Positions 15,770 through 17,929 of a DNA stretch of 64,000 bases are shown piece after piece; the stretch's first letter is position 1; each line of letters starts with the position of its first letter. The position numbers were made by a program, and so were the translations under genes. The notes below the pieces were generated by a model. It did no database searches, was not told where the DNA came from, and saw nothing but the letters and a program-made list of their open reading frames with translations. This DNA is from an uncultured Methylomirabilota bacterium (GTDB lineage: Bacteria > Methylomirabilota > Methylomirabilia > Methylomirabilales > 2-02-FULL-66-22), in contig CAWJSJ010000005.1 of the NCBI GenBank assembly GCA_963845565.1, positions 896,001 to 960,000 on the forward strand, given 5' to 3'.

Positions 15770-16786
15770 TTAAAGTGTCCGCCCGGCAGCCTGAGCGAAA
15801 GGTGCCAGTTCGCGCATGAGTTGCCGGAAGACGTCGGGCTTCAGCGACTGGACGCCGTCGCTCACCGCGATCTCCGGCCGCATGTGGACCTCGATCATCA
15901 GGCCGTCGGCGCCGCAAGCGATGCCCGCCTTGGCCATGGGGGACACGTACTCCCAGTGGCCGGTGCCGTGGCTCGGGTCCACGATCACCGGGAGGTGGGT
16001 GTGCTTCTTGAGGACGGGCACCGCGTTCAGATCGAGGGTGAAACGGGTAGCCGTCTCGAACGTCCGGATGCCGCGCTCACAGAGGACCACCTGGTAGTTC
16101 CCCTCCGACAGGATGTACTCCGCCGCCATCAGGAACTCCTGGATGGTGGACGCCATGCCCCGCTTCAAGAGGACCGGCTTGCCCACCTCGCCCGCGCGCT
16201 TGAGCAGGGCGAAGTTCTGCATGTTCCGGGCGCCGATCTGGAGCATGTCGGCGTACTCGGCGATCAGGTCCACGTCTTCGGGCTTGAGCACCTCGGTGAC
16301 GATGGCGAGACCCGTCGCTTCGCGGGCCTGGGCGAGCAGCCGCAGCCCTTCCTTCCCCATGCCCTGGAAGGCGTAGGGGGAGGTCCGGGGCTTGAACGCG
16401 CCGCCACGCAGGACCGAGGCGCCCGCCTCCTTGGCGAGCACGGCGAGCTGCATGACCATCTCCTCGCTCTCCACGCTGCACGGACCCGCGATCACCGGCA
16501 GGCGGTTCCCGCCGAACTCGGCATCGCCCACCTTCACGAGACTCGGCGTGGCCTTGAACTCCCGGCTGGCCAGCTTGAAGGGCTGGAGGATGGGGACGAC
16601 GCTCTCGACGCCCGGCATGACCTCCAGCGAGTGGAGGCGGGCCTTCCCGCGCTCGTCTCCCACGGCGCCGATGACGGTGCGCTGCGTGCCCCAGATGACG
16701 TGAGGCTGGTACCCGAGCTCCTCGATGGTCCGGATGACGTCCTGCACCTGCTCCTTGGGGATGCCGCCTTTCATGACAATGATCAT
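15770..16786 (-). CDS. aroF: DAHP synthase (class I-beta) with N-terminal ACT-like regulatory domain
   Basis: [30 protein letters not shown] and DPSHGTG. GGAGG SD precedes the ATG. Confidence 0.93.
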
Positions 16787-16796
16787 GTCTCGCCTC

Positions 16797-16915
16797 CTGG
16801 GCGGCCGCTGAAAAAGGCCATCTGCTGCGTTGGCCCGCCTCGCCACTCGCTGCGGCGTGCCGCCTTGCACCTTGGCTTTTTGAGCGGCCTACACGAAGTG
16901 TCTTTCAGAAGCCGA
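16797..16915 (-). mobile_element. repeat family A (MITE-like), degenerate copy 1
   Basis: GCTGAAAAAGGCCATCTGCTGCGTTG...GCCTTGCAC...TTTTTGAGCGGCCT matches the other five copies. Confidence 0.65.
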
Positions 16916-16944
16916 CTCAATCACACAACTGACGGACCGATCAG

Positions 16945-16988
16945 TACAAAAGAGAAGGCCACGGGGCTTTGTCTGCCCCGTGGCCTTC
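16945..16988 (-). terminator. attenuator terminator in the aroF leader
   Basis: 14-bp perfect stem GAAGGCCACGGGGC/GCCCCGTGGCCTTC (16954-16988) followed by TCTTTTGT on the minus strand. Confidence 0.8.
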
Positions 16989-17009
16989 GGTGTCTGGATG
17001 CCTTTTGGT

Positions 17010-17096
17010 CTAGCTCATCCGTCGCCTCGAGCCGGCAGGGCAGACGCCCGGAAAGCAAAAGTAAAACCACACCCGGCTCGAATCGTCACGGAACAT
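17010..17096 (-). CDS. putative aromatic-amino-acid leader peptide MFRDDSSRVWFYFCFPGVCPAGSRRRMS
   Basis: GAAAGGA SD 6 nt before the ATG; codon run TGG TTT TAC TTT TGC TTT; lies just upstream of the terminator and aroF. Confidence 0.78.
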   Translation of the reverse strand: MFRDDSSRVWFYFCFPGVCPAGSRRRMS

Positions 17097-17124
17097 TTGC
17101 AGTCCTTTCAATCACCGGCCACGA

Positions 17125-17153
17125 TTGATACCATCCGATACGGTATGCGTCAA
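17125..17153 (-). promoter_or_regulatory. candidate sigma70 promoter of the aroF leader
   Basis: TTGACG-N17-TATCAA with an upstream TG (extended -10). Confidence 0.5.
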
Positions 17154-17929
17154 GCAGTATGTCCGACCGGGCCGCGCTCCGGCGAACGGCCGGCGGGGCA
17201 GACGCGAAGGCATCGCCCCATGCAGTCGGTCGCCAGGCGCGTGCTGCGGCAGGTGGCCCACTCGGTCCGCGCCGGAGGATCCAACCAGAGACCGTTCTCG
17301 GCCGCCTGGGGCAGGGTGGTGAGCGCGCCACCGGGACATTGCCGCACGCACTCCAGACAGGCAAGGCCGTCGCAGGTCTTTGCGACCAACAGGGGGGACG
17401 GGATCAGCGGCGCCGCGGTGATCACGGAGTTCCAGCGGATGCGGGGGCCGTACCTGGCCGTCACGACCACGTTGTTGAGGCCGAACTCCCCCAGGCCCGC
17501 CCGCACTGCGGCGTGCCGATGCGAGAACATGGCCGGCACGTGGGCGTACTCCTCCGGGACGCCCGTGTTGGTGGTCGGGAAGAAGAGCGAGGCGTGCCCC
17601 ATCTCTTCCAGGTGCGTGGCCAGGCGGAGGGCGATCGTGTTGAGGTGGTCATTGATGATCTGATAGCCCGATTTCTCGTAAAGGCAGAGGCGCAGCGCCT
17701 CGGCGCGCTTCGATTCGGGGTAGAACGGCGAGCCCTTGAGCAACTCCGGCCACGCCATGACCCGATCAAGGATCCGGATCCCGAAGGTCACGACCGTCCT
17801 TGCGCCGGGGAGCAGGTCGGCCGGGTGATGCGCCGGCGGCGCCCCGTCGAATCGCTCCACCGGCGCGACCCCGACCAGGCTCGCGCCCATTCCTCTGGCC
17901 ATCTCGGAGAGCGTCGTCGTGAGATCCAT
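17150..17929 (-). CDS. QueG-like (epoxyqueuosine reductase family) 4Fe-4S protein
   Basis: FSHRHAAVRAGLGEFGLN, YGPRIRW, CxxCxxCxxxCP and a second Cys cluster (C..CxxCxxxCP). Confidence 0.7.
   Translation of the reverse strand: MDLTTTLSEMARGMGASLVGVAPVERFDGAPPAHHPADLLPGARTVVTFGIRILDRVMAWPELLKGSPFYPESKRAEALRLCLYEKSGYQIINDHLNTIALRLATHLEEMGHASLFFPTTNTGVPEEYAHVPAMFSHRHAAVRAGLGEFGLNNVVVTARYGPRIRWNSVITAAPLIPSPLLVAKTCDGLACLECVRQCPGGALTTLPQAAENGLWLDPPARTEWATCRSTRLATDCMGRCLRVCPAGRSPERGPVGHTA

Follow-up and report, generated by a model that had tools for sequence, protein, structure and literature searches.

The window, by which we mean the whole stretch of 64,000 nucleotides analysed here (from an uncultured Methylomirabilota bacterium, contig CAWJSJ010000005.1), carries the gene aroF on its minus strand, preceded by a short leader whose parts suggest a transcription attenuator. 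In window coordinates, the features are the following:

15770..16786, minus strand: aroF, the putatively regulated gene, encoding a type I-beta DAHP synthase of 338 aa with an N-terminal ferredoxin-like domain
16796..16915, no strand assigned: dispersed inverted-repeat element of about 120 nt, between terminator and aroF
16945..16953, minus strand: U-rich tail, the predicted 3' end of the attenuated RNA
16954..16988, minus strand: 14-bp hairpin of an intrinsic terminator (segment 3, 16988-16971; segment 4, 16967-16954)
17010..17096, minus strand: leader ORF of 28 codons plus TAG, its frame and length shared by most same-genus homologues
17027..17049, minus strand: segment 2, the antiterminator 5' strand (core 17045-17036; second helix 17033-17030)
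17052..17069, minus strand: control codons W10 F11 Y12 F13 C14 F15, in which F13-C14-F15 occupies the conserved Phe-Tyr-Phe core
17073..17081, minus strand: segment 1, with 9/9 pairs to 17035-17027, a candidate anti-antiterminator or pause hairpin of the closest relatives only
17103..17109, minus strand: Shine-Dalgarno-like GAAAGGA, 6 nt before the leader ATG
17125..17153, minus strand: likely sigma-70-type promoter (-35 TTGACG 17153-17148, 17-nt spacer, -10 TATCAA 17130-17125)

The aroF product scores above cut-off with NCBIfam PRK08673 and TIGR01361 and contains Pfam PF00793 and PF18152; the ORF after the gene lies on the opposite strand. A preliminary description of this DNA, made from the letters alone, had placed aroF next after the terminator. 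The gene is indeed downstream, but it starts at 16786, about 160 nt past the terminator, and the gap holds the dispersed repeat. This element has 57 matches in the genome including itself (156 local hits by another count) and folds into a single long hairpin. We rejected it as a component of the switch, since most homologues have no repeat at this site. A related copy lies near 17790-17900, and the element is REP- or MITE-like. On the other side of the leader, the gene at 17150-17929 encodes an Fe-S protein whose matches to reductive dehalogenase and QueG are weak, below both cut-offs; it is also the leader's upstream neighbour in several same-genus genomes.

The Shine-Dalgarno sequence, the 28-codon ORF with its W-F-Y-F-C-F run and the 14-bp terminator with U-rich tail are all present in the sequence as first described. 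So is the antiterminator complementarity, in which 17045-17036 and 16980-16971 form nine Watson-Crick pairs and one G-U pair; segment 3, the 5' arm and loop of the terminator, is thus also the pairing partner of segment 2. The proposed promoter holds in part. TTGACG-N17-TATCAA is there, but its -10 box is weak (the T at position 6 is missing, and a TG stands immediately upstream), and a consensus promoter scanner run on the window did not call the pair. The conserved part is the -35 box: TTGAC, counted 40-150 nt before the antiterminator strand, occurs in 70/70 testable aroF leaders against about 8% expected. Likewise, a purine-rich site and start codon lie 48 nt upstream of the scaffold motif in most same-genus leaders. 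We also asked how often such an arrangement arises by chance. The genome has 14,768 Shine-Dalgarno-led small ORFs, 99 of them with at least four aromatic codons in seven; only four of the 99 have a terminator-like hairpin behind them, and the hairpin of the window leader is the strongest of the four. Twenty-three RNA runs, each sharing at most 0.35 of words, were available, and four were examined in the form of assembled contigs; one contig (run X3, 265 nt, depth 2, 11 differences) spans 16849-17109 and bridges the terminator, but with its strand, ends and level unreadable and DNA carry-over possible, we give it no weight.

The leader is real and conserved as an aroF-associated element. It was found in full, with a covariance model, in 15/15 same-genus genomes with an orthologous aroF (at least 78% identity); five same-genus genomes without the leader also have no such aroF copy in their assemblies. 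In a set of 30 genomes it lies upstream of the best aroF match in 21. The covariance model, built from 32 leaders, matched 108/151 sampled Methylomirabilota genomes; we fetched 130 of the 161 matches in this phylum, of which four looked false, and 74 of the 130 precede aroF. The preliminary description had suggested looking for a W/F/Y-rich uORF upstream of aroF in relatives; an aromatic uORF is widespread at these loci, with Trp in part of them. The model also matched 52/151 Desulfobacterota genomes. The best 30 loci there all have a Phe/Tyr-rich uORF, many also with Trp, and the genes behind them include DAHP synthase (18), ADH synthase (3), the PRK06836 aminotransferase (4) and indolepyruvate oxidoreductase alpha (1), with three loci showing no family at threshold and one not scanned. 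At L265, L273, L274, L277, L280-L282, L291 and L292 of this phylum, an aromatic leader was seen before pheA-like, ADH synthase, PRK06836 aminotransferase or indolepyruvate ferredoxin oxidoreductase alpha genes. Acidobacteriota gave weak matches in 12/151 genomes; of four inspected, two proved to be leaders of the Phe/Tyr type, and for one of these the gene behind it was confirmed as prephenate dehydratase. A scan of 185,579 species with an exact pattern returned 58 matches, 24 before aroF and 34 judged to be chance, with no true match outside Methylomirabilota-type loci. The pattern was too strict and therefore missed the Desulfobacterota members that the covariance model later found. Within the source genome, no aromatic leader was seen before trpE or pheA.

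Several loci depart from the standard arrangement. In one same-genus genome (L256, G004:C61:48960-50335), an insertion of about 1.4 kb with a transposase-like ORF on the opposite strand separates an intact leader from aroF. In family f7, where the model matches 5/18 genomes, aroF stands directly behind an atpC-like gene with no leader at L016-L018 and L020. In G155, a gene of the phytanoyl-CoA dioxygenase family is preceded by a second aromatic leader, which is partly decayed (L173, L248). At L023, L026 and L028 (family f4), uORF and antiterminator are deleted, and all that is left between promoter and aroF is one hairpin with a U-tail. In the closest relative (G009, L002:2692-2862), the aromatic run is shifted out of frame by an additional base behind the leader ATG; this may be decay or an assembly error, the latter because the second aroF of G009 is also in pieces. 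The window leader could itself be decaying and act as a fixed, leaky terminator, as the three f4 losses, the L002 frameshift, the repeat inserted downstream and a drift from Tyr to Cys at codon -4 would suggest. We find this very unlikely, since the window retains an intact promoter, Shine-Dalgarno and reading frame, together with five aromatic codons and both helices, and the 2:3 duplex, at -27 kcal/mol, is typical for the family.

To characterize the constraint on the leader, we aligned 70 of the 74 aroF leaders, leaving out L144, L179, L226 and L228 for bad trimming. Pairing within the 8-bp core of 2:3 reaches 97.3%, and in seven leaders a U-A pair is replaced by C-G; the pair flanking the core switches from C-G to G-C in 13. 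No double-sided change had been seen in this helix in the first 21 sequences. In the 70, the antiterminator helix does covary, a check that had been proposed at the outset. None of 500 shuffles reaches the observed covariation score, a test that overstates significance because the homologues are related and 32 of them built the covariance model; partners slid out of register pair at 35-52%. The pause hairpin of the preliminary description fared differently: its nine pairs are complete in the window, but the helix is 63% paired across 21 homologues and seems not to be conserved beyond the closest relatives. The segment-2 core is paired within the 5' domain in 52/65 leaders, through structures other than this 1:2 helix.

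The scaffold is translated in all three frames, depending on the clade, across the homologues, which places the constraint on the RNA and not on the peptide; for the same reason we rejected peptide-level conservation as the constraint. This bears on the idea that the nascent peptide stalls the ribosome upon binding a free aromatic amino acid, comparable to TnaC-like arrest, in which the leader peptide sequence itself stalls the ribosome. Within the genus, a G-V-C-P motif and the C-terminal half of the peptide are conserved, as arrest would have it. Yet a one-base deletion in L014 alters the C-terminus and keeps the RNA, and the Cys codon changes to Arg or Tyr in step with its pairing partner. 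Moreover, the geometry predicts that stalling would give read-through, so that synthesis would be induced when the product is abundant. Together with the three-frame reading, this makes arrest highly improbable.

We then placed a modelled ribosome on each of 65 leaders, masking -17 to +12 nt around the A site. When the A site is at codons -8 to -4, 2:3 has a predicted probability of 0.84-0.94; this falls to 0.67 at -3 and 0.18 at -2, and then to 0. In the window, as in the 65 homologues, 2:3 can form wherever the A site stands within the aromatic run (in the window, W10 included) and is lost within one to two codons past the last Phe. Folding with and without the ribosome-covered segment thus agrees with the expected switch, a modelled ribosome past the last Phe blocking 2:3 and one on the control run allowing it. 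Once complete, the window terminator is favoured by at least 11 kcal/mol at every ribosome position modelled, and since it is the more stable structure at equilibrium, control must be kinetic. The folding model alone is no proof of a switch, because 2:3 is also predicted in 50/65 leaders with no ribosome, as segment 3 emerges, and in the window it can form across a ribosome at the stop codon. The energy of the 2:3 duplex is of little help here, cognate and non-cognate partners lying little apart (-28.8 versus -27.6 kcal/mol).

The choice of uORF was made by Shine-Dalgarno strength, blind to composition. At least three aromatic residues occur in the ten codons before segment 2 in 66/71 aroF leaders. 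Codon tallies cover 68 of the 74 loci (L100, L148 and L213 were taken in the wrong frame; L117, L160 and L177 gave no call), and the aromatic fraction of their control window is 0.54, against 0.068 in genome ORFs. Phe is present in 68/68, Tyr in 64/68, Trp in 41/68 and all three in 37/68; in the window's order, the corresponding numbers are 21, 17, 19 and 15 of 21 leaders. Codons -5, -4 and -3 are Phe, Tyr and Phe in 43, 48 and 62 of 65 leaders, forming a Phe-Tyr-Phe core, and the last Phe begins 9 nt before segment 2 in 53/68. The window run holds three Phe codons, one Tyr and one Trp. C14, at the Tyr position -4, is TGC where the closest relative L002 has TAC, one base apart; a Cys-sensing role for it was considered and rejected.

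The claim that one leader reads Trp, Phe and Tyr is only partly supported: all three codons are present in the window and in more than half of the leaders, but Trp is not universal and family f10 never has it (Trp 0/10, all three aromatics 0/10). We slightly favour a narrower version of the same attenuator, which reads Phe alone or Phe with Tyr and for which Trp is an incidental codon. The place of Trp varies and is farther away (-6 to -10), and aroR, the leader of Corynebacterium glutamicum aroF, is reported in a review to answer to Phe limitation and not to Tyr (PMC11802643). A second source ascribes aroR control to Phe and Tyr (PMC7356990), which counts against Phe alone. Against an incidental Trp stand its frequency in the window's order, its density in leaders overall (0.78 per leader, versus 1.3% of genome codons), the leaders of family f5 (seven Trp and no Tyr codons in three leaders) and the folding result for W10. 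On the whole, Phe sensing is likely, Tyr sensing probable and Trp optional. For the source genome in particular, Phe is very probably an input and Tyr reasonably so; Trp is a plausible input on which we would not quite rely, and the reading in which all three act together is more tentative still.

The codon choice itself suggests another input. All six control codons of the window begin with U, and codons of this class are read by tRNAs carrying (ms2)i6A37; TTT makes up 113/200 Phe control codons, against 17% in genome ORFs. The leader might then mainly report tRNA modification or general decoding speed. However, the spacer residues are mostly Gly, Arg, Ala and Ser and not other U-starting codons, and elsewhere the scaffold carries codons that do not start with U. 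Modification could be a second input; as the main one we consider it very unlikely.

Such codon swaps were found before several other operons (gene classes beyond the scanned representatives were assigned by N-terminal likeness). Nineteen scaffold matches are Leu/Ile-rich leaders before ppdK (pyruvate phosphate dikinase); in 17 of these leaders, the control window has a Leu/Ile/Val fraction of 0.64 and an aromatic fraction of 0. In both annotated loci (L234, L236), ppdK heads a cluster with ilvBNC and leuAB, which also includes psd and pssA. Loci L204-L206, L209-L211 and L234-L236 belong to family f9, and a dapA-like gene follows ppdK in L234. Val/Ile-rich leaders precede a cluster of acyl-CoA dehydrogenase, mutase, thiolase and class III PHA synthase at 7-8 loci of family f4 (L134, L140, L146, L169, L182, L201, L207, L237). 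Val-rich leaders, with two U-tailed hairpins, precede a sigma-54 activator, behind which come crotonyl-CoA carboxylase/reductase, FabH, acyl-CoA dehydrogenase and mutase, at 4-6 loci (L141, L152-L154, L241, L257) of the same genus as the window, though this leader was not found in the window's own genome. At 13 loci (L143, L151, L155, L172, L176, L178, L180, L186, L188, L196, L223, L168, L170), Val-rich leaders with GTA codons stand before an unannotated, Cys-rich protein of roughly 90-100 aa that matches no Pfam family; the genes after it are often one resembling D-glutamate cyclase and a hydantoinase/caprolactamase-like pair. Val/Gly-rich leaders precede malate synthase at three loci of family f5 (L167, L171, L192). 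The Val-type leaders mostly use the rare GTA codon. G025 has a Gly-rich leader before a class V aminotransferase and an Ile-rich one before an ABM-domain gene with aldehyde ferredoxin oxidoreductase (L123, L159). The window genome has, outside the window, a second, diverged leader before a class V aminotransferase (L258, G000:C1:668070-668190), with a Shine-Dalgarno, an ORF of 23 codons rich in Gly and Arg, and a terminator whose stem has the same core.

The case for charged-tRNA sensing rests most strongly on codon content tracking the downstream pathway while the RNA stays fixed. This tracking also speaks against direct sensing of a protein, metabolite or tRNA by the RNA, in the manner of a riboswitch or T-box and with the uORF incidental, a mode that the strong nucleotide conservation across two phyla might otherwise suggest. 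The conserved bases are explained by the 2:3 and 3:4 pairings. In addition, Rfam covariance searches gave two chance matches in the window (E about 4) and nothing except a tRNA in seven homologous loci, and a T-box search of the whole genome returned none; with no covariance-model match, T-box and Rfam riboswitch identities were rejected. We regard direct sensing as extremely unlikely.

The scaffold also occurs in a two-hairpin form. In the largest family, f9, the first hairpin lacks a U-tail (1.6 T in 12 nt on average, 37 aroF leaders), and a second, U-tailed hairpin (8.0 T in 12 nt) was found in 32 aroF leaders. The 5' arm of this second hairpin is complementary to the 3' arm of the first (-22.7 kcal/mol), and 17/17 ppdK leaders are built in this way too. 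Such a relay would operate by 2:3 freeing segment 4, which would block the real, second terminator. Relay loci are L050, L053, L091, L119-L125 and most f9 loci. Families f2, f4, f5 and f7 have two U-tailed hairpins, and the aroF leaders of the window's genus keep only the first.

The leader thus combines two mutually exclusive helices, 2:3 and 3:4, with a -35 box, Shine-Dalgarno, uORF, aromatic run, U-tail and DAHP synthase gene. What characterizes attenuators was found in it: a leader ORF led by a Shine-Dalgarno, cognate control codons, an intrinsic terminator and an antiterminator conserved in its pairing. We therefore consider it very likely, from sequence and folding models, that the aroF leader is a classical ribosome-dependent transcription attenuator, probably driven mainly by low Phe-tRNA. 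In this sense, conservation, covariation, geometry and the codon-swap control lend good support to the ribosome-dependent attenuator of the preliminary description. The leader would be translated while being transcribed. With charged aromatic tRNAs plentiful, the ribosome would pass F15 and cover segment 2 as segment 3 emerges; 3:4 would then form, and transcription would end near 16945. With Phe-tRNA low (probably also Tyr-tRNA, possibly Trp-tRNA), the ribosome would linger at W10-F15, 2:3 would form first, and aroF would be transcribed.

We also entertain a wider and rather unlikely picture: one ancient, portable scaffold shared by Methylomirabilota and Desulfobacterota and reprogrammed by control-codon swaps. 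Its Trp/Phe/Tyr version would combine three aromatic tRNA pools as alternatives (a logical OR) at the pathway-opening enzyme (DAHP or ADH synthase). Leu/Ile versions would run ilv-leu, and Val- or Gly-rich versions would make central-carbon genes (those for crotonyl-CoA carboxylase/reductase, PHA synthase, malate synthase, acyl-CoA mutase and dehydrogenase, and a class V aminotransferase) responsive to charged tRNA, with the relay in the largest family.

Attenuation of aroF is itself already known, and multi-amino-acid leaders exist. In E. coli, thrL and ilvL each sense two or more amino acids, and the his attenuator has six segments. As in E. coli trpL, pheL, thrL, ilvL and his, the position of the ribosome would here set 2:3 versus 3:4 pairing. 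Unlike them, this leader matches no Rfam leader, and one recognizable scaffold is reused before several operons with differing codons; it would work like trpL and pheL, though a conserved pause hairpin was not clearly seen. The trpL/pheL geometry invoked as precedent in the preliminary description thus applies, but that description overlooked aroF leaders already on record. One is the aroR attenuator of C. glutamicum, reportedly the subject of Neshat 2014. In its described form, aroR too is a leader peptide before a DAHP synthase gene, with a Phe-Tyr-Phe core and transcription attenuation (PMC4046766), and it has been experimentally tested; going by the available description, aroR belongs to another phylum and is reported without Trp, whereas the present leaders often add Trp and more Phe or Tyr. 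Another is the uORFC-13-1 motif of Acholeplasma, which always precedes aroF and combines a predicted uORF, containing Phe codon(s), with an intrinsic terminator (PMC8632094). It shares the Phe-codon uORF and terminator, but is limited to Acholeplasma and environmental sequences, and the part of the source we draw on describes neither an antiterminator nor a Trp/Tyr run. Attenuators were also predicted for Shewanella aroF (PMC2659441) and upstream of the Desulfovibrio vulgaris aroA'-aroB'-pheA-aroF-tyrA supraoperon (putative; PMC1173090, Table 7). Both place attenuation at the entry to aromatic synthesis, as structure predictions with no leader peptide or control codons described in the portions available. 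By its gene context, which it shares with the three Desulfobacterota matches before ADH synthase, the D. vulgaris attenuator may belong to this family.

The statement that the leader is undescribed in this lineage was borne out: our literature search found nothing on it in Methylomirabilota or Rokubacteria and no Desulfovibrio leader peptide, although some members may be in print in subscription papers or supplements. Apparently new are a multi-phylum RNA family that Rfam does not contain, the exchange of control codons on a single scaffold, and the relay built from two hairpins. As far as the available text of one survey goes, classical attenuators have been described mainly in Proteobacteria and Actinobacteria, and attenuators can hop between genes (PMC2965389).

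These results add an RNA family missing from Rfam and provide a testable model for aromatic amino-acid control in the poorly studied Methylomirabilota and in many Desulfobacterota. Because leaders that have or lack Trp or Tyr occur naturally, as do copies of the scaffold with swapped codons, it can be tested whether a single codon suffices to add an input and how attenuators move between operons. Finally, the Val- and Gly-rich copies suggest that carbon-assimilation genes, too, may be subject to attenuation in these bacteria.
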